From Candidatus Falkowbacteria bacterium (lineage in GTDB: Bacteria; Patescibacteriota; Patescibacteriia; CAIXNZ01): DNA of 64,000 bases. Shown in pieces: positions 4,221 through 58,876 of this stretch. Where the stretch lies: assembly GCA_963774955.1 (NCBI GenBank), contig CAVZGV010000004.1, positions 67,522 to 131,521 on the forward strand. The letters run 5' to 3'. The notes below the pieces were generated by a model, which worked only from the letters and a program-made list of their open reading frames with translations, was not told the origin of the DNA and ran no database searches. The translations under genes were made by a program, and so were the position numbers. Each line of letters opens with the position of its first letter. Positions within the stretch are counted from its first letter, which is position 1.

Positions 4221-4386
4221 AGATTGATGATAAAGATGAGAAAAAAGGGGAAAGAGAGTAAGAAGGGTAAGAAGAGAATTCCCTTATTACTCCTCTTTAC
4301 CCACCTTACGCTTCTTTCCCTTTTTCAAGGCAACCTTATAAAACTTCATAGAACTTTATATAACCTAATATAACCTTATTTTAAAC

Positions 4387-5432: not shown

Positions 5433-6047
5433 TTAATTCTCACTTATTAAATCCGGATAATTAGTATAAATATATCTATAATTCTCTGCGTCGGGAATTT
5501 TGTGCTTCATAGGATTTTCATAAATATAGCGTAAATGTTCGTCAAAATCATTTTCATTGCGGATGTAATGGTCGCGAAATGATTTTTGCCAATGGAATTT
5601 TAGAAAGTAAGTTTGGGCTTGGCCGTATTTGGCAATAAATAGCTTTCGCAATTCAAATAAATATTCGTAATGTTTTTCGATTAATCCCTCATAAATTTGA
5701 TATTTTCCCTGGTTTCGAACCCGAAGGAGCGATTTGCAAATCGCTCCTTCGGGTTCGTGACCGAGGATAAAATTTATGTGGCGGGTATAATGTCTTTTCA
5801 AAAATTGCATTATTTTGGATAAATCCTTTGATTCCATTGGAAAAAACATCAAATGAAAATGGTCTTTCAATATTACAAAGGCAAAAAGATCCATGTTCTT
5901 CATTTTCTTAACCAATCGTAATTCTTCAATAAACAATTTACAAAAAATCTGTTCCTTAAAATATTCAACACGATTATCGGCAACTGAGGTAACAAAATAT
6001 GTCGCGCCTTCAAAATATATTCTTTTTTGTGCCCCCTTGTGTAACAT
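5433..6047 (-). CDS. REP-associated tyrosine transposase (RAYT, IS200-like Y1/HUH transposase) with an internal roughly 50-aa insertion
   Basis: aligns to E. coli RAYT motifs: YFEGATYFVTSV, HUH motif DHFHLMFF, C-terminal SFRDHYIRN..EHLRYIYENPMKHK (catalytic Tyr region). Confidence 0.8.
   Translation of the reverse strand: MLHKGAQKRIYFEGATYFVTSVADNRVEYFKEQIFCKLFIEELRLVKKMKNMDLFAFVILKDHFHLMFFPMESKDLSKIMQFLKRHYTRHINFILGHEPEGAICKSLLRVRNQGKYQIYEGLIEKHYEYLFELRKLFIAKYGQAQTYFLKFHWQKSFRDHYIRNENDFDEHLRYIYENPMKHKIPDAENYRYIYTNYPDLISEN
5716..5757. repeat. perfect 42-bp palindrome inside the RAYT coding sequence
   Basis: CGAACCCGAAGGAGCGATTTGCAAATCGCTCCTTCGGGTTCG equals its own reverse complement; encodes EPEGAICKSLLRVR within an insertion not present in canonical RAYTs. 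Confidence 0.9.
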
Positions 6048-6966: not shown

Positions 6967-7150
6967 ATTGTTTCCTCCTGCTTTTCTGTTTTCCATTTTA
7001 TGTCTAATCTAAACATAATCACTATCATAAGTCAAACCTTGACGCCTACTCAATTTTACCCTATAATATAACCATAATCCCTAGCGGGATTTTTAGTTTA
7101 AATAGAAATTCCATAGTTATTAGTTGTTAGTTATAAGTTTTTAGTTAATT

Positions 7151-7243
7151 GCGCCGCCATCGTCTAGTGGTTAGCCTGTCCGCCTCTGGCGGAGACACCA
7201 GGTTTTTCCGCCAAAGGCGGATCCGCCTCCGGCGGACATCCTG
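7151..7243 (+). pseudogene. 5' portion (positions 1-43) of tRNA-Glu interrupted by two REP-like palindromic insertions
   Basis: GCGCCGCCATCGTCTAGTGGTTAG + insert + GACACCAGGTTTT + TCCGCCAAAGGCGGATCCGCCTCCGGCGGA + CATCCTG, compared with intact copy at 7516. Confidence 0.7.
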
Positions 7244-7255: not shown

Positions 7256-7510
7256 ATGTATTATTTATATATTTTACTAAGCTTAAAAGATTCAGGTTAT
7301 TATATTGGAATAAGCGATAACCCGGAGAAAAGACTGCTTGAACATAACCAAGGTAAAACAAAATCCATAAAAAGCAGGATCCCATTTGAATTAAAATATA
7401 AAGAGGCATATAGTACTAAAACTGAAGCAAGAAAAAGAGAAATTTTATTAAAGAAAAATTATCAGATTCGCAAGGAATTACTTAATAAAATTGGATTTAA
7501 TCTTAAATAA
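7256..7510 (+). CDS. small GIY-YIG nuclease family protein inserted in the tRNA-Glu locus
   Basis: YYLYILLSLKDSGYYIGISDNPEKRLLEHNQG (GIY-YIG plus R..EHN catalytic motif), 84 aa. Confidence 0.75.
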   Translation: MYYLYILLSLKDSGYYIGISDNPEKRLLEHNQGKTKSIKSRIPFELKYKEAYSTKTEARKREILLKKNYQIRKELLNKIGFNLK

Positions 7511-7515: not shown

Positions 7516-7587
7516 GCCGCCATCGTCTAGTGGTTAGGACACCAGGTTTTCATCCTGGTAACAGGGGTTCGATTCCCCTTGGCGGTA
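7516..7587 (+). tRNA. tRNA-Glu (anticodon TTC)
   Basis: manual fold: acceptor GCCGCCA/TGGCGGT, D-arm GTCTAGTGGTTAGGAC, anticodon stem CCAGG/CCTGG with loop TTTTCAT, T-arm AGGGGTTCGATTCCCCT; no encoded CCA. Confidence 0.8.
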
Positions 7588-8056
7588 CTAGAGCAAAAAT
7601 CACTTCTATCGCAGAGGTGTTTTTTGTTATATAAACTGTTTGATAATTTTTATTATTTAAGGTTTTTCCGCCAAAGGCGGACCCGCCTCAGGCGGGCATC
7701 CTGGTAACAGGGGTTCGATTCCCCTTGGCGGTACTAGAGCAAAAATCACTTCTATCACAGAGGTGTTTTTTGTTATATAAACTGTTTGATAATTTTTATT
7801 ATTTAAGGTTTTTCCGCCAAAGGCGGACCCGCCTCAGGCGGGCATCCTGGTAACAGGGGTTCGATTCCCCTTGGCGGTACTAGAGCAAAAATCACTTCTA
7901 TCGCAGAGGTGTTTTTTGTTATATAAACTGTTTGATAATTTTTATTATTTAAGGTTTTTCCGCCAAAGGCGGACCCGCCTCAGGCGGGCATCCTGGTAAC
8001 AGGGGTTCGCCTGCCCGCCGTAGCTTGAGCGAAGGCGGGATTCCCCTTGGCGGTAC
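7588..8056 (+). repeat. tandem repeat, 146-bp unit x about 3.4; each unit is a tRNA-Glu 3' half with a REP-like hairpin doublet in the anticodon loop plus a 73-bp spacer
   Basis: units start 7661, 7807, 7953 with 1-2 substitutions; last unit also has a hairpin insertion in the T-loop (8010-8039). Confidence 0.85.
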
Positions 8057-8092
8057 TGAGAAAAAACTCTGTTCCATTTAGGAAACAGAGTT
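8057..8092. terminator. bidirectional terminator
   Basis: aaaaaactctgtttcc...ggaaacagagttttt hairpin. Confidence 0.6.
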
Positions 8093-8093: not shown

Positions 8094-8531
8094 TTAGTTT
8101 GAAAAATAGAAGAGGTCAATACAATTATCCAGATCATGGATTAAAACCAGTTTTTTGGCCAATGAAGGATCAATCCATTGAAATCCCTTATGCTCCGTTG
8201 GCTCAATCTTTACTTCTGGGCGTTTATCCAAAAGGCAGAAATAAATATGATAGATAAAATCTACCCCGCAATTTCTGACAAAAATCGTCTGGAAAAATAT
8301 GACTTCAGATAGGGGTATGACCAAGCCTGTTTCTTCAAAAATCTCACGTTGCATCGCCAAATGAGGCGATTGATCAGTAACGTCAACTTTACCAGAGGGC
8401 AATCCCCAGGTATTCCCTGACTTTTTATAGTCCTGTCTTAAAAGCAGCAAAATTTCTCCCTGGTCTTGCAAAAAACAGCCAACTGCTTCAAAAACAGGAT
8501 TAAAATCTGCAGGTTTTTCTTTAAAGATCAA
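8094..8531 (-). CDS. NUDIX hydrolase
   Basis: Nudix box GLPSGKVDVTDQSPHLAMQREIFEETGL. Confidence 0.75.
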   Translation of the reverse strand: MIFKEKPADFNPVFEAVGCFLQDQGEILLLLRQDYKKSGNTWGLPSGKVDVTDQSPHLAMQREIFEETGLVIPLSEVIFFQTIFVRNCGVDFIYHIYFCLLDKRPEVKIEPTEHKGFQWIDPSLAKKLVLIHDLDNCIDLFYFSN

Positions 8532-9453: not shown

Positions 9454-9593
9454 TGTATATAAGACACTAAGAGGTTAATAACCAATATCCAAATTCCAAT
9501 AACCAAAAAATTTGAAGAAATAAAAAACTTCCATGTTGCAACCTCATATAGCCTCATAAAACTTGATAAAACATTATATAACCTATTAAACTT

Positions 9594-11073: not shown

Positions 11074-12064
11074 CGGACATTTAGCCTTAATTAACTTCGG
11101 ACTTAGCCAAGTTGATGAAATGACAGTCATTGTCTGCGATAAAAAAGGTCAACGCATTCCGGCCAAAGTCAGAGCCAATTGGATCAAAGAGCTGGCACCC
11201 AAGGCCAAAGTAATGATTGTTCCGGATATTGGCCAGGATGATGACTCTCAAGCTTGGGCCGATTACACCTTACAATTTCTGGGCTATAAACCTGACTGCG
11301 TCATCACTTCAGAAGCATACGGCAATACCTGGGCAGAATGCTTGAAAACTAAACATATCCTATTTGACCAGGCCAGAAACCTTGTACCTATCTGCGCTAC
11401 TAAAATTCGGGGAAATCCTTTGGCCAGTTGGGAATATTTACCGCCTCCGGTTCGCGCCTATTTTGCCAAAAGAATCTGCGTCATTGGAGCTGAATCAACC
11501 GGCACCACTACCCTGGCCAAAGACTTGGCTAAATATTACCAGACAACCTGGGTACCGGAATACGGACGCTATTATTCTGAAGCAAAACTTAATGCCAAGG
11601 ATAATAACAATTGGCGCACCGAAGAATTTTCCCACATTGCTGAAAAACAAAATCAGGCTGAAGATGCCCTGGCCCAAACCTGCAATAAAATCCTGATCTG
11701 CGATACTGATTCCTTTGCCACAGCGCTCTGGCATGAAAGATATCTGGGTAATTGGTCTGAACAAGTTGAAAAATTATTTTCAGACAGAAAAATTGATTAT
11801 TATCTGGTAACCAACGACGACATCCCCTTTGTTCAGGACGGTACCAGAGACGGCGAACACATCCGTCACCAAATGCAGCTGCGCTTTATCCAAGAACTAA
11901 AAAAAAGAAATAAAAAATTTACTGTTATTTCCGGAAATAAAGAAGAAAGGTTAACTAAAGCCGTTGAAATCTGCAACAAAATATTGGACGAACAGAATTT
12001 ATTTGCAAGTGCATATTTACAAACAAACAACATAACCATTAATAATAACGCTTATGTAAAATGA
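11030..12064 (+). CDS. nadR: NadR-type bifunctional NMN adenylyltransferase / ribosylnicotinamide kinase (no N-terminal HTH)
   Basis: GKFYPLHNGH (H/TxGH nucleotidyltransferase motif as in E. coli NadR); second-domain Walker A GAESTGTTTLAKDLA. Confidence 0.8.
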   Translation: MKNGIIIGKFYPLHNGHLALINFGLSQVDEMTVIVCDKKGQRIPAKVRANWIKELAPKAKVMIVPDIGQDDDSQAWADYTLQFLGYKPDCVITSEAYGNTWAECLKTKHILFDQARNLVPICATKIRGNPLASWEYLPPPVRAYFAKRICVIGAESTGTTTLAKDLAKYYQTTWVPEYGRYYSEAKLNAKDNNNWRTEEFSHIAEKQNQAEDALAQTCNKILICDTDSFATALWHERYLGNWSEQVEKLFSDRKIDYYLVTNDDIPFVQDGTRDGEHIRHQMQLRFIQELKKRNKKFTVISGNKEERLTKAVEICNKILDEQNLFASAYLQTNNITINNNAYVK

Positions 12065-12234
12065 AAATCCTTCTCCCCAGGAGCTGTGATTATGGGACAC
12101 GGCTCCTGTGACAGGAGGATATTATACCTTCGATTATCCAGATTGCTGGCATAAAGAAGGTAAAGGAAAGGTCTTTGAAAAAAAAGTATTGGGCTTCATT
12201 TCAACCAAACCAAACAAAAGGAGGTGGAAGTAAA

Positions 12235-12828
12235 ATGAAAAGAAAAAAGAACTTGCCCAAGCCGGTCAAATCCCAGCTGCGTATTATCGTGATCCGCTAC
12301 CGCAACAAACTCTATTTCCAGTTGGTTAACTTCCTATTCGACAAACTGGAAGCAAGAAATGTCAAGTATTTTTGCGGCAACGGCAAGATTACGGTTTTAC
12401 GTGACAGAAAAACCTTAGCCCGAATGGAATTTCGGGAAATCGAAGATGACCGAACCACAACCGATGGTTTCATTGAGCAATATCCCTGGGTGATCATGAA
12501 GCATGATGATTACTGCTTTTCGCGAGTACTTTTACCCCAATGGTTCAAACCAGGCGATATTTTACTCTTCAACTACACTACGCCGACTGACAAACTTTTT
12601 GCTCATCGGGTTGTGCCCGAAAAAATCACGCCCCAAGACGCAGCTGCCTATATGGTTTGGCCATATGCCTGGAGCATTTGTGCCTCAAAAGTCTACAATA
12701 ATTTAGGCAATCTGCTTTTGGGCAAACGCAAACAAGTGGATTTCAATTCCCTAATAGCAGCGTATACCCAAAAAGCTGTTTATCAGGGCAAAGAATTCCG
12801 AATCATTAACTTTTCCAAACTAGACTAA
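12235..12828 (+). CDS. hypothetical protein; first gene of GC-rich island
   Basis: GGAGG RBS before ATG 12235 (MKRKKNLPKP); GC jump at about 12200. Confidence 0.45.
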   Translation: MKRKKNLPKPVKSQLRIIVIRYRNKLYFQLVNFLFDKLEARNVKYFCGNGKITVLRDRKTLARMEFREIEDDRTTTDGFIEQYPWVIMKHDDYCFSRVLLPQWFKPGDILLFNYTTPTDKLFAHRVVPEKITPQDAAAYMVWPYAWSICASKVYNNLGNLLLGKRKQVDFNSLIAAYTQKAVYQGKEFRIINFSKLD

Positions 12829-12840
12829 AGGAGGACTGTC

Positions 12841-13446
12841 ATGAGAATCGAAGAGTACGCGAAATTGATAAGGACAGGACAGACAACGAAAAATCCTGTC
12901 ACGGGAATCTGCGGCCGAATAATTCGCGGCCAAAAACCGTCAGATTTTACCACCCTGACTGACGATCCTGAAAGAAAGATCGTCATGCTGGTGGATCCTG
13001 ACGGCCTGGCCAAATTGCTCGGCAAAACCGGATACCAAATGCTCATTGAAGTCGGCTACCAGCCGGATTACCTTGAGCATAAGGTCAAAGAAGGCAACCA
13101 ATTCAAACTGGCGGTCTTTCCCGAAGGCGGCGCTGCCCAGCTTGCGACCTGGGACAATGTCTTTGCCATGGTCAGTCAGGTCTATCCTGACATAACCTTC
13201 AGCACCCAGATCAAAAACGGCCTGAAGAAGCAAAGCTTTGACCAGATCGAAAAACAAGCCGGCTTCAAATTTCTTGAAGTGGAAAAAGCCGGAAAAAACG
13301 ATCCCCGCTTCATGACCTACAAGAAATTTAGAAATCCGGCCAGACCCTGGCCGACTTCCGCGCCTTCCTGTACTTCACCATCCATTTGCGTGAACTCTAC
13401 AGCGGCGACGGCTGGACCTATGACGACAAGGGCAATCGCGGAGTGA
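12841..13446 (+). CDS. hypothetical protein; C-terminal about 40 aa look out-of-frame (probable frameshift near 13325-13332 into the frame of the next gene)
   Basis: AGGAGG RBS; tail PARPWPTSAPSCTSPS is low complexity whereas the alternative frame from 13332 gives protein-like TLADFRAFLYFTIHLRELY and stays open to 13572. Confidence 0.35.
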   Translation: MRIEEYAKLIRTGQTTKNPVTGICGRIIRGQKPSDFTTLTDDPERKIVMLVDPDGLAKLLGKTGYQMLIEVGYQPDYLEHKVKEGNQFKLAVFPEGGAAQLATWDNVFAMVSQVYPDITFSTQIKNGLKKQSFDQIEKQAGFKFLEVEKAGKNDPRFMTYKKFRNPARPWPTSAPSCTSPSICVNSTAATAGPMTTRAIAE

Positions 13447-13571
13447 AAGAATACATCATCCCCAATCTGCCCATTGCCGACCTGGGTCCCAGCGAACTGA
13501 TCGACCTGGATATCCAACTGCCAACCGACATCAGCCCTGCCTTAAAAACAGGCAAAGAAAGGAGAACGACT

Positions 13572-14396
13572 ATGAAAAACCTGAAGATCCATATGCTGGT
13601 CATTGACCCGCAAAACGATTTCATGGACATCAATGGCGCCACCCTACCGGTGGCCGGAGCCAAAGATGACATGATCCGACTGGCGGGTCTGATCGACCGC
13701 GTCGGTCCCAAACTCGCGGACATCCATGTCACCATGGATAGCCACAGACTGCTGGACATCGCTCATCCCGCGTGGTGGGTGGACCAGAACCGGAACAACC
13801 CCGCACCCTTCACTATGATCACGGTCGACGACGTGGCCAACCGCATCTGGGTCCCGCGCAATCCCAACTTCTACGACCGCTGTCTGGCCTACGTCAAGGA
13901 ACTGAACCGCAAGGGCAACTACATGCTCTGCATCTGGCCGCCCCACTGCCTCATCGGCACCTGGGGACACAACGTATACCCCGAACTAAATGACGCTTTG
14001 CAGCTCTGGTCCGGCAAGGAATTCGCCATGGTCGACTACGTGACCAAGGGTTCCAACCCCTGGACCGAGCACTACGGCGCCATGGAAGCCGAGGTCCCGG
14101 ATCCTGAAGATCCCGGTACCCAGCTCAACACCAACTTTCTCAACATGCTGGCCGAGGCTGATATCGTCGCCATTGCAGGCGAAGCTCTCAGCCACTGCGT
14201 CAAAGCCACGGTTTCCCAGATCGCCGACAACATCGGCGAAGAGCACATCAAGAAGTTCCAGATCATCACCGATTGCACCAGCCCGGTCGGCGCCGTACCC
14301 AACGGCCCTGATTTCCCGGCCATTGCCCAGCAATGGTTGCTGGACATGCAAAAACGCGGCATGACCCTGGTCAAAGCCGACGACTTCCTGCGCTAA
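13572..14396 (+). CDS. isochorismatase-family cysteine hydrolase, nicotinamidase (PncA)-like
   Basis: MLVIDPQNDF, WPPHC, catalytic Cys context AGEALSHCV; AAAGGAG RBS before ATG 13572; frame is open upstream to 13332. Confidence 0.6.
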   Translation: MKNLKIHMLVIDPQNDFMDINGATLPVAGAKDDMIRLAGLIDRVGPKLADIHVTMDSHRLLDIAHPAWWVDQNRNNPAPFTMITVDDVANRIWVPRNPNFYDRCLAYVKELNRKGNYMLCIWPPHCLIGTWGHNVYPELNDALQLWSGKEFAMVDYVTKGSNPWTEHYGAMEAEVPDPEDPGTQLNTNFLNMLAEADIVAIAGEALSHCVKATVSQIADNIGEEHIKKFQIITDCTSPVGAVPNGPDFPAIAQQWLLDMQKRGMTLVKADDFLR

Positions 14397-14478
14397 ACCG
14401 GCAAACCCTGGGTTACCCCGCGTCGCGAGGTGACCCAGGGTAACCATCAATTTCCTAACCAAAGAAAGGAGAACGACC

Positions 14479-15234
14479 ATGCCACGCCTAATGGACAACG
14501 AAATGCAAGTTTCCAAAATTCCTGGAATGCAGGGATTTGCCTTCTCTGGCGTTCGGACCGAAAATCTCGGTGCCACCGAGTATACTCTGGTCACGATCGC
14601 GGTCGATGTTACCGGCTCGGTTGCCGGCTTTGAAAACGATCTGCGTAATTCGCTGATCGCCGCGGTCGAGGCCTGCAAAAAATCCCCGCGTTCCGATAAC
14701 CTGCTGTTACGGGTGATCATCTTCTCCACCAGCTACAAAAATGGGGTGGAAGAAATCCACGGGTTCAAACCCCTGGGTGAAATCGACCCGCAAGCCTATC
14801 CGCAGTTTCAGCCCGGAGGAGGCACTCCGCTTTTCGATGCCTGCTTCTCTGGCATCGGCGCCACCAACGTCTACGCCAAGAAGCTCATGGCCGACGATTT
14901 TCTGACCAACGGCATTGTCTTCATCATCACTGATGGCGAAGACAACGCTTCCCAGTCCACGCCCGCCATGATCAAGAAGGAAATCACCAAGGCCATCACC
15001 GGAGAAACCATCGAGTCCCTGATCACCGTCCTGATCGGCATCAACGCCAGCTACTGCAACCAAGCGCTGGATGATTTCCGCAATCAAGCGGGCATCAGCC
15101 AGTACATCGATGCCGGCCAGGCAACCAAAGGCAAGCTCGCTAAGCTGGCAGACTTCGTTTCTCAATCGGTTTCCAGTCAGTCCCAGGCTCTGGGTACTGG
15201 CGGACCGAGCCAGAAGATTTCTGCCACGATCTAA
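14479..15234 (+). CDS. vWA-domain protein (TerY-like) of a TerY-P triad
   Basis: MIDAS-like DVTGS, GGTPLFDA, IVFIITDGEDN. Confidence 0.65.
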   Translation: MPRLMDNEMQVSKIPGMQGFAFSGVRTENLGATEYTLVTIAVDVTGSVAGFENDLRNSLIAAVEACKKSPRSDNLLLRVIIFSTSYKNGVEEIHGFKPLGEIDPQAYPQFQPGGGTPLFDACFSGIGATNVYAKKLMADDFLTNGIVFIITDGEDNASQSTPAMIKKEITKAITGETIESLITVLIGINASYCNQALDDFRNQAGISQYIDAGQATKGKLAKLADFVSQSVSSQSQALGTGGPSQKISATI

Positions 15235-15351
15235 CAACCAAGGGAGATAATGGAGCAATCTGTTATCTCCCTATTTTTTCCCCACGTAGCGGGGTGAAAC
15301 CAGAAAGGCCCCGCCTACGCTAAAGCTTCTACGGACAAGGAGGTGAGATTC

Positions 15352-16227
15352 ATGATCCAGTTACAAACCGATCACTACTTCCACATTGGCAAAACGCACT
15401 TAACCAACGGTAAGCCTTGTCAGGATTATGCAATCTCACAGGTTATTAATGACGCAGCTATTGCGATCATCTGTGACGGTTGCTCTTCCGGCGGACAAAC
15501 CGATGTCGGCGCCAGGCTCTTAGGCTTAACCACCCAAGCTGCTTTGCTTAACCACTGGCTGACCAACGGCCAAATCATTCCGGAACCAACCAGCGCTGAA
15601 ATCAGGCTCAATCAAAAAATCAAACTAGCCTCTGCTTGTCAGCTTTTGGGACTGCAACCCAATGACTTGCTGGCCACCTGCGTTTACGCTTATTTCGGGC
15701 CGCAGGCCGGAATTATTCACATCCAGGGAGACGGAGTCGTTGCCCTCAAATTCACTGACCAACATATCCTGATGCACCGATTTGAGTGGCAAGACAATCG
15801 ACCCTATTACCCGGCTTATGCTGAAAGTCGCTTGGCTGATTTCATTGCCGCTCATGGTAATAATCTGCAAGCCTTACGTTTGAAATCCGAAACCTGGCAA
15901 ACCGTCGCGTCTCAACAACAGCTTTTACAGACCAACGACTACACGCTGAGCCAGGGACTGCAAGGCCTGATCATCAACTTGGACCAGACACTGATCAGCC
16001 AAGGGCTGGAATTCATTGCCGTCTTTTCCGACGGCGTCACCCAAATTGACAATGTGAATTGGCAAGACGCGGTGACTGAATTCCTCAGTTTCAAAAATAC
16101 CAAGGGTGAATTTGCCAAGCGCAGAATGATCCGCGGTATTCAGGATATGATCAAGGTTAATAAAGGTCCATTGGATGACATTGCTTACGCGGTAATTCGG
16201 TTGGACCAAAACCAAAAGGAGGTGTGA
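15352..16227 (+). CDS. PP2C-family Ser/Thr phosphatase
   Basis: IAIICDGCSSGGQTDVGARL and AVFSDGVTQ motifs; AAGGAGG RBS before ATG 15352. Confidence 0.55.
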   Translation: MIQLQTDHYFHIGKTHLTNGKPCQDYAISQVINDAAIAIICDGCSSGGQTDVGARLLGLTTQAALLNHWLTNGQIIPEPTSAEIRLNQKIKLASACQLLGLQPNDLLATCVYAYFGPQAGIIHIQGDGVVALKFTDQHILMHRFEWQDNRPYYPAYAESRLADFIAAHGNNLQALRLKSETWQTVASQQQLLQTNDYTLSQGLQGLIINLDQTLISQGLEFIAVFSDGVTQIDNVNWQDAVTEFLSFKNTKGEFAKRRMIRGIQDMIKVNKGPLDDIAYAVIRLDQNQKEV

Positions 16228-16228
16228 G

Positions 16229-17962
16229 ATGCCAACTATGCGTGGCAACATCGAAGTTGTCTTAGCCAACCGCGGAGCATTGACTCTGCGACCGGCGGAT
16301 CACGTTGCCACCGGGGGAGAAGGCTCGATTTATCGGGCTAAAAACACCATCATCAAATTGTATACTGACCCCAGAAAAATGAATCAGGATGGCATGGTTG
16401 AAAAGATCAAACTCTTATCAGCCATTAAGCATCCTTTCATTGTTTCGCCCACGGGGCTGGTAAACAATAATGCTGGTACTCCTGTTGGCTTTTACATGCC
16501 TTTTAGCGAAGGCGAACCCTTGCCCAGAGTTTTTACCAATGACTGGCGCAAACGCGAAAACTTTAATGACCAGCAGGCAAAAACTTTGGTTGACAACATG
16601 CGACAGGCAGTCGAAGTTGCCCACGCCAACCACGCGCTTTTAGTTGATGCCAATGAGATGAACTGGCTAGTATCTTTGGCCAAAGCAAATCAGCCCGAAC
16701 CCAGAATCATTGATGTTGATTCCTGGCAAATTGGACGCTTCCCGGCCAAGGTCATCATGCTGTCCATCCGCGATTGGCTCAATCCAAAATTTACCGAGTC
16801 GAGCGACTGGTTTAGCTGGGGAATTGTCACCTTCCAGGTCTTTAGCGGCATCCATCCTTACAAAGGAACACTGCCAGGCTACAAACCCAATCAACTTGAA
16901 GATCGCATGAAAGCCAAAGCCTCGGTCTTTTCCCAAGGTATTCAGCTGAATAAAGCGGTTCGGGATTTCTCAGTTATTCCCGGGCCCTTGCTCGACTGGT
17001 ATATTGCCGCCTTCCAGAACGGCGAACGGACCAAACCACCGTCACCCTTCGATTCCGGACTGACTCAAGCCAAAGTAGCCAGAGTACTGCATGCAGTTAC
17101 AACCGCAAGCGGCCTGCTGGTTTTCGAAAAACTATTGCAGCCGGTCAACGACCCAGTGATCAGAATCTTTCCTTGCGGCGTGGTCTTGCTGAATTCAGGT
17201 AAGCTGTTTGACTTACAAAAGCAATACCAAATCAGCACGGCCAAAACCAGGGACGTTGAAATCATCAGGATTGATAACGGCTGGCTCAAAGCCGAGATCA
17301 TTAACAAGCGGTTACAATTCAATTTCATCAATGCAACCAGCCTCAACGAAGAACCGCTTAAATTTGATCTGGCTGGTGAGAAGATCTTTCGCTGCGACAA
17401 TCGCTTGTTTGTCATCAATGAGCAAGGCCTGACCGAAGTGATCCTGAAATTCTTTTCCAAGCCGATCCTGGCTCTGGGCAAAACCTGGGGCGTGCTGGCG
17501 AATTCCATTCGCTGGTATGATGGCTTGGGCATCCAAAACACCATGGGTGCGACTTACATCATTGCTCCGTTCAATGACACTGCCTGCGCCGAAATCAGGG
17601 TGCCGGAACTTGATGGCTTAAAACCCATTAGCGCCAAAGCCGGTCAACGTTACATAGTTGTCATTGCTTTAGACAAGCAAGGCAACTACCAAAAAGTTGA
17701 GCTGACTCTGGATCGGGAATATAAAACCTACAAGGTCTGGCAGGAAATTGTTGACAGCCCTGATCTTAATCTGACCATCTTGCCAAAAGGTGTCTGCGCG
17801 ACAATTGTCAAAGACGGAGAGCTGAACATCTTTGTTCCGACCTCAAGCACCCAAAACACGGTCAAAGATAAAAACATCAGCACTGACATGCTTTTATACA
17901 ACTGGGAGAACAAAGTTGTTTATCTGCAAAACGGCGAAATCTGGGGCGTTAAAATGAAATAA
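16229..17962 (+). CDS. Ser/Thr protein kinase-like protein (N-terminal kinase fold, large C-terminal domain)
   Basis: Gly loop ATGGEGSIYRA, Lys in IIKLYTD, catalytic-loop-like HANHALLVDANEMNWLV. Confidence 0.5.
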   Translation: MPTMRGNIEVVLANRGALTLRPADHVATGGEGSIYRAKNTIIKLYTDPRKMNQDGMVEKIKLLSAIKHPFIVSPTGLVNNNAGTPVGFYMPFSEGEPLPRVFTNDWRKRENFNDQQAKTLVDNMRQAVEVAHANHALLVDANEMNWLVSLAKANQPEPRIIDVDSWQIGRFPAKVIMLSIRDWLNPKFTESSDWFSWGIVTFQVFSGIHPYKGTLPGYKPNQLEDRMKAKASVFSQGIQLNKAVRDFSVIPGPLLDWYIAAFQNGERTKPPSPFDSGLTQAKVARVLHAVTTASGLLVFEKLLQPVNDPVIRIFPCGVVLLNSGKLFDLQKQYQISTAKTRDVEIIRIDNGWLKAEIINKRLQFNFINATSLNEEPLKFDLAGEKIFRCDNRLFVINEQGLTEVILKFFSKPILALGKTWGVLANSIRWYDGLGIQNTMGATYIIAPFNDTACAEIRVPELDGLKPISAKAGQRYIVVIALDKQGNYQKVELTLDREYKTYKVWQEIVDSPDLNLTILPKGVCATIVKDGELNIFVPTSSTQNTVKDKNISTDMLLYNWENKVVYLQNGEIWGVKMK

Positions 17963-17975
17963 CGCCCAACGGGGG

Positions 17976-18013
17976 GAGAAATTGTACCACGTTACAATTT
18001 CTCCCCCACTTCT
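17976..18013 (+). terminator. rho-independent terminator after kinase gene
   Basis: ggggagaaattgta...tacaatttctcccc hairpin. Confidence 0.6.
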
Positions 18014-18290
18014 TTCTTCATAAAATTGCGACCAAAAATATTTTGGTCATAATTTTATACTTTAATCTGAGATTAAAGTGAAACTAAGTTCTTTAAAACT
18101 TATACTCAAAACATATTTTACCCCTCCTTGGGGGTTTGGGGGGCCGAACTAAGCGTCGTGATCAAAACCACGAACGAACCATATGCACTAGCGCATTGAG
18201 GCCCCCCAAAACTTTTTGCATACTTTTTTGTTCAAAAAAGTATGAAGCCGAAGGCTTAAAGTTCTCAGAACCTGAAAGGAGGACCTAATC

Positions 18291-18488
18291 ATGGAAACCA
18301 CCAAACACAACCGGGAAGTGGTCCAAAGAGTGGGCGACTTGGTCGTAGACCTGTCTAACGAAGTCGATCCGCTGCCCATGTCTGAACCGGCCAAAGAAGC
18401 CATGGTCATGGTCATGGTTGCCAACTGCCTAAAAAGCCAGGGCAACATTGTTACCTTTTGTCTGCCAACCTTCAAGACTGGCTTATAA
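18291..18488 (+). CDS. small hypothetical protein (65 aa)
   Basis: AAAGGAGG RBS; preceded by AAAGTTCT box; followed by terminator 18557-18603. Confidence 0.45.
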   Translation: METTKHNREVVQRVGDLVVDLSNEVDPLPMSEPAKEAMVMVMVANCLKSQGNIVTFCLPTFKTGL

Positions 18489-18769
18489 CCAAGGCAATCT
18501 GAGACAGACAAAAAACTTAAATTTTCAGCTAATTTAAGCTGAAATGTTTTACTAGCACCATTAGCGGGGAAAGTCGGTTTTCACCCCGGCTTTCCCCCTT
18601 TTTAAAACCTTGACAAATATAACATATTTTGATAAACTAATAAGTCGTCTTTTACCTAATCTTAGACGAGCAATAGAAAATTTTAACTAAATAATTTTGG
18701 TTAAATTTTTCTGGCTTTGACTCAGTCAAAACCACAGTCCTTTAAACCTTAATTTAAGGGAGAAATCCT

Positions 18770-19405
18770 ATGCCAAAACAAATCATTGCCGTCGGCGGTT
18801 CAGCGGCTAATCCGCCTCACTTGGGGCACTTAGCTTTGATCCAAGCCATGTTACAATCAAAAAAATTTTCCAAAGTAATGTGGATCCCTTCCGGGGTGCG
18901 CCCGGACAAGCCTGACTTCATTGATCCGCAACATCGCCTGGCCATGACTGAACTGACACTGCAATCGATTACAGACAAAAGATTCATTTTGAATCCCAGC
19001 GATGTTTATGGCAAAAACATGCCGACCATCAAATGGATGGAGATTCTCAAGGAACAAAATCCCCAAGCGGAAATTGTCTGGTATACAGGCGTTGATTCTG
19101 TTGTGCCGCAAAAAAAATTCGGCGGCCTATGTAAAATTGAAGCGCGCTGGCAACATGGGGAAAAATTAATTAAGAATTTTAAATTCCTAATTATCCCCCG
19201 CGCCGGTTATCCGCAGCCTTCAACTTTCAAAATTCCTCTTGAGGATTATGAAATCCTGGATGTGGAACTGCCTGACATTGCCAGTTCAAAAATTCGAAAA
19301 CTTGTTCAAGGAGGTAACAGCGATTTTGAAAAACTAGTAACGCCTGAAGTTTCCGCCTATATCAAGGTTAACAAACTTTACGGATGGAAAGGAGAAAAAG
19401 CATGA
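18770..19405 (+). CDS. nadD: nicotinate/nicotinamide mononucleotide adenylyltransferase (NadD-like)
   Basis: GGSAANPPHLGHL (HxGH nucleotidyltransferase motif), about 210 aa. Confidence 0.65.
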   Translation: MPKQIIAVGGSAANPPHLGHLALIQAMLQSKKFSKVMWIPSGVRPDKPDFIDPQHRLAMTELTLQSITDKRFILNPSDVYGKNMPTIKWMEILKEQNPQAEIVWYTGVDSVVPQKKFGGLCKIEARWQHGEKLIKNFKFLIIPRAGYPQPSTFKIPLEDYEILDVELPDIASSKIRKLVQGGNSDFEKLVTPEVSAYIKVNKLYGWKGEKA

Positions 19406-20007
19406 GCAAAGCAGTGATCACTATTGGCGAAAGCGACGCCCTGACCATTGTTGACGGGCAAAATGATTTCATCTTGCAGACCGGAACTCTTTATGTGACC
19501 GGAGTGGAAGGTGAAACCGACAACGAGGAAATCATCAAACGAATCCAGGAACTATGGTCAAAATTTTCAACCTGGAGAACCACGACTGAAGATTTCCATC
19601 CCGAGAATCACGTGGAACACACGATTTTTGGTCCCCATTGCATTGAAGACACCGCCGGCCAGGAATATCATCCTGACCTGATGAAAATATATGAGGACGC
19701 TGATCTAAATCTATATAAAGGCGAAAATCCGGACATTATTGCCTATTCAATTGCAACCAGCCCTGATTTTCATGACCACATTTCCGATTTGCGCCAACAT
19801 GGCATCAAGAGAGTCTTTCTTGTCGGCTGGGCTTTCACCCATTGTGTGGGGGAATCGGCCATTGCCTATGCGACCCAAGGGTTTGAAACCTTTGTCTTCC
19901 GCGATCTGTCCCGGAGCGTTCCTCCGCCCTATGGCGATCCGGATGCAATGACCAAAAAGCTGGAACTCTACGGGGTCAAGCTGATCACGTCTGACCAAAT
20001 CGCTTAA
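19402..20007 (+). CDS. pncA: nicotinamidase PncA (isochorismatase family)
   Basis: LTIVDGQNDF, GPHCIEDTAGQEY, catalytic Cys in LVGWAFTHCVGESAI; ATG 19402 overlaps nadD stop. Confidence 0.7.
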   Translation: MSKAVITIGESDALTIVDGQNDFILQTGTLYVTGVEGETDNEEIIKRIQELWSKFSTWRTTTEDFHPENHVEHTIFGPHCIEDTAGQEYHPDLMKIYEDADLNLYKGENPDIIAYSIATSPDFHDHISDLRQHGIKRVFLVGWAFTHCVGESAIAYATQGFETFVFRDLSRSVPPPYGDPDAMTKKLELYGVKLITSDQIA

Positions 20008-20232
20008 ACACTCAGGGTGAGTCCGATTAATTTCGGACTTACCCTTTAGAAAAATGTAACTAACCGCGTTGTCATGGTGAGTCCTTCGACAAAGCTCAGG
20101 ACAAGCATAACGAGTTTATGGTGAGCCAAGCCGAACCAAACCATGACATTACCCCCGCTCATTTGGTTCCATTTTTCTTCTCTCAAACAGGTTGAGAGAG
20201 AAAGTTCTTTCGAAAAACAAAGGAGAAATAAG

Positions 20233-21165
20233 ATGAAGACTCATAACTATCTCTGGCATGCCTTTGGAATGAACGGGAAAATTCTTAATTGGTGGCCTGC
20301 AGAAAAGAGTAAATTTTCAGCGCCACAAGTTGAACTGGACATTTCTGACATTCAATCCCAGCTTTTTGAGAAGGTGGGTGAGTGGGTAGGAGTTAAGGAA
20401 TCTGAAAATCTTGAAGATGAAGAAATGATCACCCAGCATGTGCTTGAAACTTACCAAGCCTGGGGCAAATTCGGACCTTATGGTGATTTAATCCAAATCT
20501 CCTATGATAGAGACCAGCGCAGAGCGCATATCGATTTCATCGGCCGCCTGGCCTTCCCCAAACCAGCCCTGGCTGCTGACCTGCTTCCGATCATTCGTGA
20601 CGCTGCAGGAAATTTGTTCTTCATCGGCATCACCAGAAAAAAAGAGCCTGGAATCGGCAAACCCGCCTTGATCGGCGGACATCTCGACATCAAAGGCTAT
20701 CATCTAGAAACCGCAGCCGAAGCCCTGATTCACGAAGCCAAAGACGAAGTCGGGCTTAAAATTACAGTAATGAAGCAACATGCGCGCGAAATAAAAACCA
20801 AGCCCTATATGCCCAGGATTCCTGTTTCAGTCGGCTTGAAGGGCTATCCCAAACTGCCAAGCGAACTGCTTCTGGTCGGAACTTTTGAAACCTCGGCCGA
20901 AGAAAAGCTGCTGCATCTGGGTACAAGGCGAGTTTCCCAAACCACAGCTTACACCATGATCATCGACATCCGTGATCGAATATTAACTCCAGATGATGTC
21001 GCTAAGCTGTTTTCCGCCGGAGATGATGCAGCCAGCATCTTTGTTCATCAAATCACAAAAAATCACTGGCTATTCGATTTATTCAATCGCGCCATCTATC
21101 ATCATCAAACGATTTATGTGGCAGCACTGTCACAACTCCGCCGAGAGAGCATAATCAACATCTAA
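20233..21165 (+). CDS. hypothetical protein with degenerate Nudix-like box
   Basis: ETAAEALIHEAKDEVGL resembles Ex7REUxEExGU; AAAGGAG RBS. Confidence 0.4.
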   Translation: MKTHNYLWHAFGMNGKILNWWPAEKSKFSAPQVELDISDIQSQLFEKVGEWVGVKESENLEDEEMITQHVLETYQAWGKFGPYGDLIQISYDRDQRRAHIDFIGRLAFPKPALAADLLPIIRDAAGNLFFIGITRKKEPGIGKPALIGGHLDIKGYHLETAAEALIHEAKDEVGLKITVMKQHAREIKTKPYMPRIPVSVGLKGYPKLPSELLLVGTFETSAEEKLLHLGTRRVSQTTAYTMIIDIRDRILTPDDVAKLFSAGDDAASIFVHQITKNHWLFDLFNRAIYHHQTIYVAALSQLRRESIINI

Positions 21166-21342
21166 AACCCAGGGTGATTCATCAAAGTTACAAACTGCGA
21201 TGAATCACCCTTAGAAAAATGCACCCAAACGCTTCTGTCATGGTGAGCATAGTCGAACCATGACGGGACATCCGCTGATTTGGTTCCATTTTTCTTATCT
21301 CAAGTATCTTGAGGTAAAAGTTCTTTACAAAGGAGTACCAAG

Positions 21343-22128
21343 ATGAAAAAAATATTTGTACTGGCTAAAAGAGATGACCAGCCTAAATTTGTCAAAGCCA
21401 AAGAAGAAATTATCGACTGGCTGCGCCAAAAAAACTGTCTGGTTACTGAAACCAAACAAGCTGAACTTATTTTGGTCTTGGGAGGTGACGGCACCATGCT
21501 CAAAGCGATCAGACAACATGGAGTCAAAGGGATTCCGTTTTGTGGTCTGAATTTCGGCCATAAGGGCTTTTTGCTGAACGAATATAAGCGCGGAGTACTA
21601 ACCCAAATCATGAAAAACAAACTGGAGTACATCACCGCGCCTCTTCTGCAGGCCAAACTATTCAACCGCAACGGCCAGGAACTGGGTTTGATTTATGCTT
21701 TCAATGATATCTACCTGGAACGCAGTACCACCAACACCGCCAAACTGCACATCACTGTCGGACAAAAAATCCGCTTTGATCCCCTGATTGCTGATGGTGT
21801 GATTGTTTCCAGCGCAGCGGGCTCTACTAGCTACAACGCCTCAGCCGGCGGCGTAGTTGTGCCGATTGAAACCAACAGTCTGATTTTGACGGGAATTTGT
21901 CCGGCCATTTTCCACCAGTGGAAAAGCAGCCAATTGGCGGCTGACAGCACCATTACCATCACAGCCACGGAACTGGACAAGCGTCCGGTTCGTCTGGTTG
22001 CCGACGGTGAAGAAGTGAAAAACGCAGTCAAGGCTGTCATTTCCTATTCGGACCAAAAAGTCCGGATCGCTTTTGTCACCACCCAGGATTTCCGGAGCAA
22101 AGTTCTTAACCTGCAATTTCCTGAATAA
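21343..22128 (+). CDS. nadK: NAD kinase
   Basis: LVLGGDGTML (GGDG), NDIYLER, 261 aa. Confidence 0.8.
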   Translation: MKKIFVLAKRDDQPKFVKAKEEIIDWLRQKNCLVTETKQAELILVLGGDGTMLKAIRQHGVKGIPFCGLNFGHKGFLLNEYKRGVLTQIMKNKLEYITAPLLQAKLFNRNGQELGLIYAFNDIYLERSTTNTAKLHITVGQKIRFDPLIADGVIVSSAAGSTSYNASAGGVVVPIETNSLILTGICPAIFHQWKSSQLAADSTITITATELDKRPVRLVADGEEVKNAVKAVISYSDQKVRIAFVTTQDFRSKVLNLQFPE

Positions 22129-22140
22129 AGGAGGCTACAA

Positions 22141-23376: not shown

Positions 23377-23424
23377 AAACCTGGCCCTCCGTATTTCATC
23401 AACGTTAGCGAACTTCGGAGGGCC

Positions 23425-23504
23425 CTCTACTCAAATTATTTTTAGGTGAACCAAAATCCAGAATCTATAATCTAGAATCTAGAATCCAAAAAAATAATTT
23501 AGGC
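23425..23504. repeat. intergenic inverted-repeat module, family A copy 1
   Basis: CTACTCAAATTATTTTTAGG ... (AATCTAGA)n ... AAAAAATAATTTAGG; preceded by terminator hairpin 23383-23424. Confidence 0.8.
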
Positions 23505-40313: not shown

Positions 40314-40395
40314 TTGGTGCGCGAGACCGGAATCGCCCGCCAGAGGGCGGGTCCGCCTTCGGCGGAACCCCTCTGCTAGTATTTTCCCGCGCACA
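40314..40395. repeat. composite REP-like palindromic element (nested hairpins)
   Basis: outer inverted repeat GTGCGCG/CGCGCAC; inner CGCCCGCCAGAGGGCGGG and TCCGCCTTCGGCGGA. Confidence 0.7.
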
Positions 40396-44236: not shown

Positions 44237-44330
44237 CCTATATAAGAGCCTTTAGCTCATCTGGCCTTAGTCGGCCGTAGCTCGGAGAGCAAAGGCCGAT
44301 AGAGTGCTTCCATGGCGTGTTTGCCCGCCG
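44237..44330 (+). pseudogene. degenerate 5' copy of tRNA-Ala with GC hairpin insertion
   Basis: agagcctttagctcatctgg + insertion + tagagtgcttccatggcgtg, compared with intact tRNA-Ala. Confidence 0.55.
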
Positions 44331-44359
44331 AAATTATGCTGTATTAAAATTGAAATAAT

Positions 44360-44432
44360 GGGCTCTTAGCTCATCTGGTAGAGCGCTTCCATGGCATGGA
44401 AGAGGTAAGGGGTTCGATCCCCCTAGAGTCCA
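44360..44432 (+). tRNA. tRNA-Ala (anticodon GGC)
   Basis: manual fold: acceptor GGGCTCT/AGAGTCC with G3:U70 Ala identity pair; anticodon loop ATGGCAT; T-arm AGGGGTTCGATCCCCCT. Confidence 0.8.
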
Positions 44433-44451
44433 CAAATACTATTTGCGTAGG

Positions 44452-44490
44452 TGGGGCATGGAAGAGGTGAGTGGTTCGAGTCCTGTAGGG
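44452..44490 (+). pseudogene. degenerate 3'-half copy of tRNA-Ala
   Basis: gcatggaagaggtgagtggttcgagtcctgtagggtcta versus gcatggaagaggtaaggggttcgatccccctagagtcca. Confidence 0.55.
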
Positions 44491-44807
44491 TCTACTCCTA
44501 CGCTCTACGGAGCTTCGGAGTGCACTGCACTCCATAATTATATAAATAATGGCTATTTAGCTCCCGTCTTCGCCTTTACCTATTAGCAAAGGGAAGTATA
44601 TATACTGAAATTACTTAAGCTTCGGTGGGCAGGCCTACCTTCGCCTATAGATATTTCTAAATGGGAGGTATATTCCTGAATAACTCGGGCTACGGTAGGC
44701 ACGCAGCTAAAAAGGAGGCGAAATTTGTGGAGGCTAACCAGCTACGGTGGGCATTGGCCCACACAAAACTTTTTACATTAAACTTTTGACTTTTAACTTA
44801 TTGAAAT

Positions 44808-51464: not shown

Positions 51465-52538
51465 TTATACAACCTTTTCAAATATAATAATTGAACGCCA
51501 GACAAATTGTTTTTCCCTAAAGTATAAAAGATCTTCTTGATTTGTTGGCTGAAAGCCCAACTTTTCAATTTGCGTTAAAATTTCAATTTTACTTTGATGA
51601 TTTCTGAGATTATAAATCGGGAAAACCATAACCACTTTACCGCCCTTGACCAAGACTTTACTGAATTGCACAAAAGCCTCTAAATATAAGGACTCCAGTA
51701 TTTGAACAGTATTTTCAATCTGTTCCCGACTTTCATTGCCTCTGACCGGCGGCCCCAAAAACGGTTCGGTTACAATCGCCTCAATTGAATTAGCCTTAAA
51801 TTTTAAACTCAAATCCTTAACATCCAACTTCATTACTTTAGACTTTTCCGCCGAAGGCGGATCCGCCTCTGGCGGAAGACTTTCTACTTTAGACTTATTT
51901 AAAAGCCAGTCCAAATTTTTCTTTGTATCCTCAATCGCCCTGTCACTGTTATCCGTTCCAATTAAATTTCTATAACCCAAAACAATCGCTTCCTGCAAAA
52001 TCGTGCCTGAACCGCAAAACGGATCCAGAATCACAGCTTCAGGTTTAACCTGCGCCAAATTAATCATCATGCGCGCCAGTTTTGGCGGCAACATGCCGGA
52101 AACCTGATCCCGGCCAGGGCGGCTAAAATCACGACTGCCAAATTCTTCAAAAGCCTGCACAGCCAAGGTCTGGCCCATGGTAACGATTCCCTGATCAATA
52201 AAAAAACAAAGTTCAGCTCCGTTTTTAAGTAATTTATTCTTGGCTACAATAACTGAAGATAATTCCGGTTCTTTGGCCACCACATAACGGGAACTGATAT
52301 TTTTTTCATCGCGTAAAATTGATTTGATTTCCATGGCAATGGCAGTCATCTTTTTTTGAATAGCCTGAATATTCATCTTTGGTGATAGGGGATAGAAGCT
52401 AAAGCCAAAATAAAACTTGGCTTGTTCAAATTTAACCAGCTTAAAGAAATTATCCTGAAATTCATCAAGGTCCCCCATAGTCGCCAAAATCTTGCCGATC
52501 TTAACTGTCCCGCCCAAACGGCTGTTTAGCCAATTCAA
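51465..52538 (-). CDS. class I SAM-dependent RNA methyltransferase (THUMP-type; UPF0020/RlmL/Trm11-like) carrying an in-frame REP insertion
   Basis: DPFCGSGTILQEA motif I and TEPF motif IV; N-terminal part appears split off into ORF 52501..52719. Confidence 0.6.
   Translation of the reverse strand: MNWLNSRLGGTVKIGKILATMGDLDEFQDNFFKLVKFEQAKFYFGFSFYPLSPKMNIQAIQKKMTAIAMEIKSILRDEKNISSRYVVAKEPELSSVIVAKNKLLKNGAELCFFIDQGIVTMGQTLAVQAFEEFGSRDFSRPGRDQVSGMLPPKLARMMINLAQVKPEAVILDPFCGSGTILQEAIVLGYRNLIGTDNSDRAIEDTKKNLDWLLNKSKVESLPPEADPPSAEKSKVMKLDVKDLSLKFKANSIEAIVTEPFLGPPVRGNESREQIENTVQILESLYLEAFVQFSKVLVKGGKVVMVFPIYNLRNHQSKIEILTQIEKLGFQPTNQEDLLYFREKQFVWRSIIIFEKVV
51847..51875. repeat. REP-like hairpin doublet inserted in frame within methyltransferase CDS
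   Basis: TCCGCCGAAGGCGGATCCGCCTCTGGCGGA flanked by imperfect 12-bp direct repeat tactttag(g)actt; encodes ESLPPEADPPSAEKS between duplicated KSKV. Confidence 0.85.
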
Positions 52539-58716: not shown

Positions 58717-58876
58717 AACAATCCGCCTTTGGCGGAAAAAGAAAAGGAATACATCAGCTAATACGGCGTATCTGGCTACGGCTTTTTTCAAAAACCTTCG
58801 CCCAAATAGCTGTGCAACTACAGATATGCCGAAACGTTCAGTAAAAACTAAAGGAGTTGTTCACGAGCGACTCCTC

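Follow-up and report, generated by a model that had tools for sequence, protein, structure and literature searches.

The window, a 64,000-nt stretch of a Candidatus Falkowbacteria contig, carries a minus-strand gene of the RAYT family (REP-associated tyrosine transposase; REP, repetitive extragenic palindrome) and several copies of a GC-rich hairpin, TCCGCC-N3-GGCGGA, which mostly occurs as a doublet. The preliminary description interpreted the two as a REP/REPIN arrangement. A group of these hairpins is located at a tRNA-Glu locus close to the RAYT gene, together with a small stand-alone gene for a GIY-YIG nuclease, and this nuclease cassette is the subject of the following analysis (coordinates are given in Table 1).

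At the tRNA-Glu locus, a sigma-70-like promoter precedes the entire unit, consisting of a displaced copy of the 5′ part of the tRNA, the GIY-YIG gene and an intact tRNA-Glu, and the cassette sits inside the tRNA's own transcription unit. The displaced copy is interrupted by a single hairpin in the D-loop and by a double hairpin in the anticodon, for which the intact gene reads AGGTTTT|CATCCTG at the insertion point, and the GIY-YIG open reading frame (ORF) starts 19 nt past this doublet. Folding of the 5′ fragment was uninformative because its three like-stemmed hairpins cross-pair. Downstream of position 7551, the 3′ half of the tRNA is part of a tandem array, each unit of which comprises a tRNA-Glu 3′ half, a trailer with a terminator-like site and again a double hairpin at 35|36 (7667-7696, 7813-7842 and 7959-7988). 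Generalized over the loci described below, its parts follow each other in the order tRNA[1..k], double hairpin, another 5-12 nt of the tRNA, a short A/T-rich linker, the GIY-YIG ORF and an intact tRNA.

Two other contigs, L124 and L208, are syntenic with the window around the RAYT and TsaD genes and about equally close to it (TsaD 85% and 87% identical, respectively). In L124, the cassette is present with the same displaced tRNA-Glu 5′ copy, the conserved promoter and an identical doublet at 35|36, and it lacks both the D-loop insert and the 3′ array. In L208, the same promoter and spacer are directly followed by an ordinary tRNA-Glu; fragment, hairpin, GIY-YIG gene and 146-nt array are all absent. 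As is typical for homing genes, the cassette is therefore polymorphic for presence and absence at a single site, which is filled in the window and in L124 and empty in L208. The empty site also places the 5′ fragment of the window where the 5′ end of the resident tRNA lies. The added DNA consists of the hairpin plus a block of linker, ORF, short leader and new tRNA positions 1-42. A recent transfer was also considered, since the GIY-YIG proteins of the window and L124 are 96% identical compared with 54% for the RAYT proteins, and was dropped because TsaD, at 85% identity, indicates that the two are simply close relatives.

Throughout the window, the hairpin sequence TCCGCCNNNGGCGGA occurs 12 times, compared with 0.00 occurrences expected from 100 shuffles, and the number of hairpins rises to at least 15 if stem variants of the type CCCGCC..GGCGGG are included. 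The hairpin positions reported previously were accurate to within 1 nt. The preliminary description had overlooked three of their properties. First, each doublet is a near-perfect 30-bp palindrome with the center GGATCC, composed of two abutting hairpins that each have a 6-bp stem and a 3-5-nt loop. Second, all hairpins except the single one at 58722 lie within tRNA-derived sequence or within an ORF. Third, the doublet at 7207 lies beside the GIY-YIG gene. An Rfam scan of the window returned four tRNAs and nothing else. Two conventional readings of the hairpins were rejected: they are not tRNA introns, because the tRNA pieces with hairpins in the window are all partial copies that adjoin an intact tRNA, and they are not intrinsic terminators, because on either strand T predominates in the 5′ flank and A in the 3′ flank.

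Table 1. Features of the tRNA-Glu cassette, further hairpin copies and the RAYT gene in the 64-kb window
Feature	Position	Strand	Basis
Sigma-70-like promoter, TTGACG-17-TATAAT	7039..7067	+	11/12 consensus positions
Displaced 5′ copy of tRNA-Glu (positions 1-42) with two hairpin insertions	7153..7243	+	Comparison with intact tRNA 7516-7588
19-nt single-hairpin insertion, CCTG + TCCGCCTCTGGCGGA, in D-loop of the tRNA-Glu 5′ fragment	7175..7193	+
30-nt double hairpin between anticodon nucleotides 35 and 36 of the 5′ fragment	7207..7236	+
Stand-alone GIY-YIG nuclease gene, 84 aa, UPF0213/Slx1-like	7256..7510	+
Intact tRNA-Glu(UUC), 5 nt past the GIY-YIG stop codon	7516..7588	+	ARAGORN; Rfam tRNA 67.2 bits
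Tandem array, 146-nt period; last 3′ half ends at ~8057	7551..8057	+	TRF (7551-8009): 3.1 copies, 99% identity; repeat families D1, D2, D4
30-nt hairpin of the second type (CCTG + CCCGCC..GGCGGG, GTAGC-containing loop), T-loop of last 3′ half	8010..8039	+
TCCGCCNNNGGCGGA copies (start positions)	7179, 7207, 7222, 7667, 7813, 7959, 40352, 44186, 44201, 51847, 51862, 58722
Double hairpin at T-loop position of a tRNA-like 3′ fragment (~40318-40395, minus strand, encoded CCA end)	40336..40366	.
Double hairpin (44186-44215), 8 nt past tRNA-Arg(CCU) (44106-44177), followed by a copied tRNA segment	44186..44236	+
tRNA-Ala set: 5′ copy with a different D-loop hairpin, intact tRNA-Ala (44360-44433), tRNA-Ala-like 3′ fragment	44247..44500	+	Repeat family D13
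Double hairpin in frame within Trm11-like methyltransferase gene (51465-52538, minus strand; 357-aa ORF)	51847..51876	.
Single hairpin, 6 nt past the stop codon of a methyltransferase-like ORF	58722..58736	.
RAYT-family (Y1 HUH) gene, 204 aa	5433..6047	minus	ORF list, Pfam, NCBIfam, motif alignment
Perfect 42-bp palindrome within the RAYT ORF, encoding the conserved peptide EGAIxxSLLR	5716..5757	.

The hairpin enters its sites precisely and without duplication of the target, as can be seen in three pairs of filled and empty sites. Compared with the adjacent intact tRNA-Glu, the 5′ fragment contains exactly 30 extra nucleotides at 35|36; the 19-mer of its D-loop is missing from the otherwise identical fragment of L124; and the Trm11-like ORF reads through its doublet, adding a peptide (PPEADPPSAE) of which exactly these 10 residues are missing in six of eight aligned homologues. 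The last insertion divides a Leu codon (CT|..|A). None of the three pairs shows a target duplication, and an adjacent 7-nt repeat was found at only 3 of 126 listed copies, so that a target-site duplication of the DDE transposase or miniature inverted-repeat type was rejected. Longer repeats in the flanks turned out to be heptamer arrays or tRNA-fragment duplications, and the apparent duplication KSKV..KSKV in the Trm11-like gene is native sequence. Over the same 126 copies, T is found at position –2 in 86% and A at position +2 in 76%, with T or C at position –1, and the insertion sites resemble TTN|NAA. For the single hairpin at 58722, an alignment of the regions at 56230 and 58675 provided no clean empty site. 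A Trm11 homologue encoded on the contig that holds L124 (P0086) carries seven extra residues (PKAEA..IR) at the exact site of the doublet, which may represent a decayed older insertion. The first ~49 residues of the Trm11-like gene (MQYFFILGKNPILSKAEIEAVL...) are encoded in another frame than the remainder (52501-52719 versus 51465-52538, minus strand), which suggests a frameshift, a sequencing error or a pseudogene.

The 84-aa protein of the cassette matches the Pfam GIY-YIG domain (PF01541) with 3.4e-15, and residues Y5, Y16, G18, R26, H30, N31 and E62 are invariant in the alignment of its relatives, indicating that the GIY-YIG catalytic core is present. In profile searches, the solved structures closest to it are 1zg2 and 1ywl, both of UPF0213 proteins, with SLX1 next. 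A DNA-binding domain was not recognizable by Pfam scan and alignment, and the protein had no match in PHROGs.

To generalize from the window, we used two sets of loci. An exact-pattern scan with one genome per species listed at least 120 loci with the hairpin, and a metagenome scan with the GIY-YIG alignment confirmed 512 relatives of the nuclease, 80 of which were kept for locus analysis. Phmmer searches with the window protein detected relatives in 5 of the 120 listed hairpin loci, and in three of them the gene directly adjoins the hairpin. These three loci show the same architecture with a CCGCC-type hairpin at a tRNA-Ser (L041, an unclassified metagenome-assembled genome, MAG), a tRNA-Val (L064, an Omnitrophota MAG) and another tRNA-Ser (L035, a Eubacteriales MAG), in the last case again at 35|36. 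Among the 80 kept relatives, 67 have a tRNA gene on the same strand within 250 nt, which usually starts 1-100 nt past the GIY-YIG stop codon. The tRNA is mostly tRNA-Glu, and cassettes were also found with tRNAs for Gln, Ser, Asn, Asp, Arg, Pro, Ala, Ile, His, Gly and Cys. In most of the tRNA-linked loci, a 5′ copy of the respective tRNA is located upstream of the GIY-YIG gene and is split by a pair of adjacent hairpins, after which only 5-12 nt of the copy remain. The insertion point depends on the tRNA: 35|36 in tRNA-Glu (the position of the window doublet, which recurs in tRNA-Glu cassettes at further loci), the D-loop in tRNA-Gln, the T-loop in tRNA-Asp and either the D-loop or 35|36 in tRNA-Ser. 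Overall, in 44 of the 80 kept loci the 160 nt preceding the ATG include a GC-rich double hairpin with perfect 6+6-bp stems. Compared with the remainder of these loci, double hairpins are 85 times as dense in this upstream slot, and shuffling of 1.29 Mb of sequence yielded none.

The sequence of the slot hairpins varies between loci. Stems of the first hairpin include TCCGCC, TCGCCC, TCACCC, TCCCGC, TCAACC and TCCGGC, those of the second TCCGCC, CCACCC, CCACGC and CCAGCC, whereas 6+6-bp stems, zero spacing and loops of equal length (3/3, 4/4 or 5/5) are constant features. We aligned 23 hairpins from 23 GIY-YIG loci; 22 of these hairpins occupy the slot directly in front of the ORF. In this set, which was preselected for perfect stems, 9 of 12 stem pairs have changed on both sides. 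Loop 1 tends to be purine-rich and loop 2 pyrimidine-rich, and columns 7-24 and 9-22 pair in 20 of the 23 hairpins. Because the two loops are often exact complements, the whole 30-mer is itself a palindrome.

These features bear on the question of whether the doublet acts only at the RNA level, as a structured module in the 5′ untranslated region of the GIY-YIG mRNA that serves as a stability, processing or insulating signal, with the solo copies as by-products. The hairpin is always located upstream of the ORF and within the transcript of the tRNA promoter, stem complementarity is kept despite sequence change, and an A/T-rich linker without a visible Shine-Dalgarno sequence precedes the ATG, all in agreement with such a role. 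The complementarity between the loops, which makes the 30-mer a DNA palindrome, would be unnecessary for two independent RNA hairpins, and the hundreds of solo copies in ORFs, spacers and rRNA of different phyla require mobility at the DNA level. We therefore regard an exclusive RNA role as improbable.

A second hairpin family was observed in D- and T-loops of displaced tRNA fragments. It often carries a 5′ CCTG tag, with CCTGCC..GGCAGG or with stems around a GTAGC-containing loop, and was located in the window (8010-8039 and 44266-44300) and in L127, L149, L177, L182, L196 and L199. In L127, L149, L177 and L182, the CCTG-tagged hairpins lie in the D-loops of cassette fragments. L196 contains the same CTGCCTGC..GCAGGCAGG palindrome as window positions 8010-8039, although this copy was not located in a tRNA arm. 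At four loci (L149, L150, L105 and L010), two to three tandem hairpin-bearing tRNA 5′ fragments are located upstream of one intact tRNA, which suggests that the regenerated tRNA was a target of insertion more than once.

The doublet 30-mer was found in at least 10 phyla. Carriers include many lineages of the candidate phyla radiation (CPR), Omnitrophota, Kiritimatiellae, Planctomycetota, Verrucomicrobiota and Lentisphaerae, as well as Ignavibacteria, Chloroflexota, Firestonebacteria, a Desulfotomaculaceae MAG and MAGs labelled Gammaproteobacteria. Among 2.9 million viral contigs, the hairpin pattern was present in only 3. Out of 132 listed copies, 42 lie within ORFs that extend at least 60 aa to either side, and 35 of these 42 are read in the frame that encodes S-A-x-G-G-S-A-x-G-G (frame split 35:4:3). 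Copies within genes are tolerated in frame. For tRNA-derived sequence, which holds ~14 of the 132 copies, the enrichment is at least 10-fold. Two individual copies deserve mention: a double hairpin interrupts a 5S rRNA gene behind ...CGGAAGTT in L118 (~2509), and another is located in L095 (2919) in the Gly/Phe-rich region of a DnaJ-like ORF, where it is translated as SASGGSAFGG.

Since the carriers among the listed loci are MAGs and one single-cell amplified genome, an artefact of assembly or sequencing has to be considered. The sequences come from independent projects, with contig names implying different assemblers and with the single-cell genome among them; copies are found in frame inside conserved genes whose homologues have none; and one copy is common to syntenic relatives from different samples. 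An artefact is thus extremely improbable.

We then asked if the neighboring RAYT gene could account for the hairpins. The preliminary description had assigned the 204-aa ORF to the RAYT family, and profile searches support this assignment. The ORF matches Pfam Y1_Tnp (E = 1.5e-7) and, in two stretches, the NCBIfam model NF047646 ("REP-associated tyrosine transposase") with 95.3 bits, above the curated cut-off of 80 bits. An alignment of 17 RAYT homologues showed that H63 and H65 of the HUH motif and the C-terminal residues Y174, N178, K181 and H182 are invariant, so that the protein has both the HUH motif and the C-terminal catalytic Tyr of the RAYT fold. All 41 homologues with a named source are labelled Parcubacteria or Patescibacteria; a contig lookup for the window's own RAYT protein found no record. 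The ORF contains a palindrome of its own, which belongs to a set of perfect intragenic RAYT palindromes of 28-44 bp with the core GAAGRAGCGATT-N4-AATCGCTYCTTC. This core is present once per ORF in six distinct orthologue loci, the outer arms vary between orthologues, and L124 has an extra copy of the palindrome 40 nt upstream of the RAYT start (L124 9921-9962). This intragenic palindrome may be the cognate or regulatory hairpin of the RAYT itself.

If the hairpins were REP/REPIN elements, as proposed earlier, the RAYT or other Y1 HUH enzymes would excise and insert the doublets as single-stranded DNA and the link to GIY-YIG would be incidental. The RAYT gene, with its catalytic residues intact, is indeed located 1.1 kb from the hairpins, the lack of target duplication is as in IS200/IS605-type transposition and compatible with HUH chemistry, and an element of two hairpins resembles a minimal left end plus right end. 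In several phyla with hairpin carriers, COG1943-type proteins are also common. The genomic context of the RAYT genes does not agree with this interpretation. The hairpins were expected to flank the RAYT gene, and no TCCGCC hairpin lies beside it in any of the seven contexts compared, i.e. the window, L121, L122 (of which L123 is a repeat), L124, L208, L209 and L210. About 101 kb around five RAYT orthologues contain not a single copy of the TCCGCC-type hairpin, and the sole copy in L124 lies in its GIY-YIG cassette. The REP-type 5′ tetranucleotide (GTAG/CGTC) is likewise absent, and the flanks are symmetric (TTY|..|RAA) rather than one-sided. A RAYT hidden Markov model matched only 1 of the 120 listed hairpin loci, weakly, and 1 of the 80 kept GIY-YIG loci, marginally. 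Moreover, an identical hairpin crosses phyla, whereas classical RAYT/REP pairs are lineage-specific, and with the copies in long ORFs, in tRNA-derived sequence and in the 5S rRNA gene described above, the element is not extragenic. Finally, the RAYT has a different palindrome of its own, and the hairpins are tied physically and statistically to the small GIY-YIG gene beside tRNA genes. Taken together, the RAYT assignment stands and its extension to the hairpins does not: we consider mobilization by a RAYT or another HUH enzyme unlikely, and the RAYT gene is probably a neighbor of the cassette outside the hairpin system. A plausible but unsupported annotation is thereby corrected.

On balance, and with only slightly more confidence than doubt, we assign the doublets to the tRNA-resident GIY-YIG cassette, together with solo insertions, and not to the neighboring RAYT. 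A more far-reaching proposal, which we offer tentatively, is that they belong to a two-part mobile system widespread in uncultured bacteria. It would consist of an autonomous GIY-YIG cassette of ~350 bp that homes into tRNA genes and rebuilds them, and of a non-autonomous 30-bp palindrome that is recognized as a DNA structure and scattered into tRNA loops, rRNA and in-frame positions of genes, as a GIY-YIG counterpart of RAYT/REPIN. For the assignment to the cassette with solo insertions itself, we propose three steps. In the first, which is the best supported, the cassette would spread by homing-like repair of a break in a tRNA gene; the incoming DNA would bring a replacement 5′ half, by which the tRNA would be kept intact while the resident 5′ half is displaced. 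In the second step, for which there is less support, the predicted structure-specific nuclease would recognize hairpin or cruciform DNA, i.e. tRNA arms and the double hairpin, instead of a sequence. In the third step, solo hairpins would arise at breaks made by the nuclease, either because the 30-mer is copied from the cassette via 2-4 nt of microhomology or by ligation of an excised palindrome, and genic copies would persist if the frame yields a harmless Ser/Ala/Gly linker. This last step is the weakest because GIY-YIG enzymes are hydrolases.

Several points weigh against this model. We know of no strand-transfer activity of GIY-YIG nucleases, and the insertion chemistry of the solo copies is unexplained. 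The regenerated intact tRNA should stay a target, and homing does not explain how it is protected. About 115 of the 120 listed hairpin loci have no GIY-YIG gene in the 8 kb analyzed per locus, the type of hairpin does not strictly track GIY-YIG similarity, and L183 has a CCGCC-type solo copy beside a TCACCC-type cassette. Because of the preselection of the 23 aligned hairpins, their 100% pairing is circular, and only the variety of stems at the homologous slot counts as evidence. The association could also be passive, with the displaced tRNA halves serving as neutral landing pads.

Such a passive association leads to the main rival of a nuclease-driven system: an independent selfish palindrome that is moved by some general or as yet unrecognized host process (such as replication slippage, template switching or repair), favors loop-forming T-rich|A-rich sites and gathers in disposable tRNA copies. 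Most copies indeed lack a GIY-YIG gene nearby, GIY-YIG-free arrays of tRNA fragments also have the hairpin (window 7551-8057 and 44186-44236; L105; L010), and several hairpin types can occupy one locus. An independent palindrome leaves unexplained why 44 of the 80 kept loci have a perfect doublet in the same slot, 5-12 nt before the fragment end, across different tRNAs, and why the slot stems are complementary yet different between loci. For these reasons, we judge it rather doubtful, though a serious competitor.

The cassette and its hairpin share properties with a number of known systems. Rickettsia palindromic elements (100-150 bp) and the GC clusters or double-hairpin elements of mitochondria (Allomyces, yeasts) are likewise GC-rich palindromes in AT-rich genomes that insert into protein and RNA genes and are tolerated in frame. 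In contrast to these, the element described here is only 30 bp long, bacterial, present across phyla and linked to a nuclease cassette. Integrative elements that target tRNA genes also leave a partial duplicate and an intact tRNA; here, the 5′ and not the 3′ part is supplied, no integrase is involved and the element has a size of only ~350 bp. REP/REPIN-RAYT systems of E. coli and Pseudomonas (PMC3116915, PMC3479197) resemble the present case in their many short GC-rich palindromes, a single-copy Y1 HUH gene and the lack of target duplication. They differ from it because the hairpins studied here do not flank the RAYT, are often genic, have no GTAG/CGTC tag, occur across phyla and are linked to GIY-YIG. 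Free-standing GIY-YIG homing endonucleases such as SegB of phage T4 (PMC2330249) are encoded among or beside tRNA genes, and their presence varies between related genomes. Unlike this type, the present protein is a bare catalytic domain of 84 aa, is cellular rather than phage-borne, and is accompanied by a duplicated tRNA 5′ half and a conserved double hairpin. Stand-alone Slx1-like/UPF0213 proteins (1zg2, 1ywl; PMC1564403) belong to the same family by profile search and have the same minimal form of the GIY-YIG domain. No genomic link to tRNA genes or hairpins is reported in that superfamily survey, unlike the situation described here. Neither the hairpin nor the cassette was found described in the literature, including PMC1564403 and a study on group I introns in Patescibacteria tRNAs (PMC13011429), and with incomplete coverage of the literature this result is weak evidence for novelty.

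If the proposed system exists, many UPF0213/stand-alone Slx1-like proteins, a large family with no known function, would be selfish elements residing in tRNA genes. It would also explain the recurrent tRNA-gene fragments and the 10-residue insertions of the type S-A-x-G-G-S-A-x-G-G in CPR, Omnitrophota, the Planctomycetes-Verrucomicrobia-Chlamydiae group and other uncultured bacteria, and would offer an accessible example of a very small palindrome whose movement leaves no target duplication. Both the tRNA fragments and the 10-residue insertions can mislead the annotation of tRNAs and genes.

The remaining hairpin copies of the window show further combinations with tRNA-derived sequence. Directly after the doublet downstream of tRNA-Arg, positions 44216-44236 are a 21-nt copy of the segment from the T-loop to the trailer of this tRNA (repeat family D11). 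The neighboring tRNA-Ala set has a diverged 3′ copy and no GIY-YIG gene, and may be the remnant of a cassette. In the region 40318-40480 (minus strand), a TTGACA-type promoter seems to drive the hairpin-bearing tRNA-like 3′ fragment, which comprises an acceptor stem and the encoded CCA. This fragment lies just upstream of a 91-aa ORF (40022-40297) without a Pfam match.

Other repeats were observed in the same genomes. Tandem heptamers are located in promoter-proximal spacers of the window (7114-7147, 23420-23540, 24732-24856, 26671-26800 and 27896-27953). Heptamer arrays are also present in L075, L098, L047, L079, L081 and L046; in other phyla, the double hairpin often lies in the middle of such an array, sometimes with inverted orientation of the heptamers on its two sides. 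In addition, 10-bp periodic A/T-rich arrays (AACCTTATAT-like) occur at gene ends or in intergenic regions (window 4332-4380, 9542-9588 and 51431-51489; L124 ~8140-8210). Apart from these repeats, the block from 12000 to 31000 has a G+C content of 0.43-0.54, compared with ~0.35-0.40 in most of the remaining window, and may be an acquired island. It encodes NAPRTase and NAD synthase (NAD salvage), a protein kinase, a radical-SAM protein and a nucleoside deoxyribosyltransferase-like protein, and genes related to this block were found in L124 and L208.

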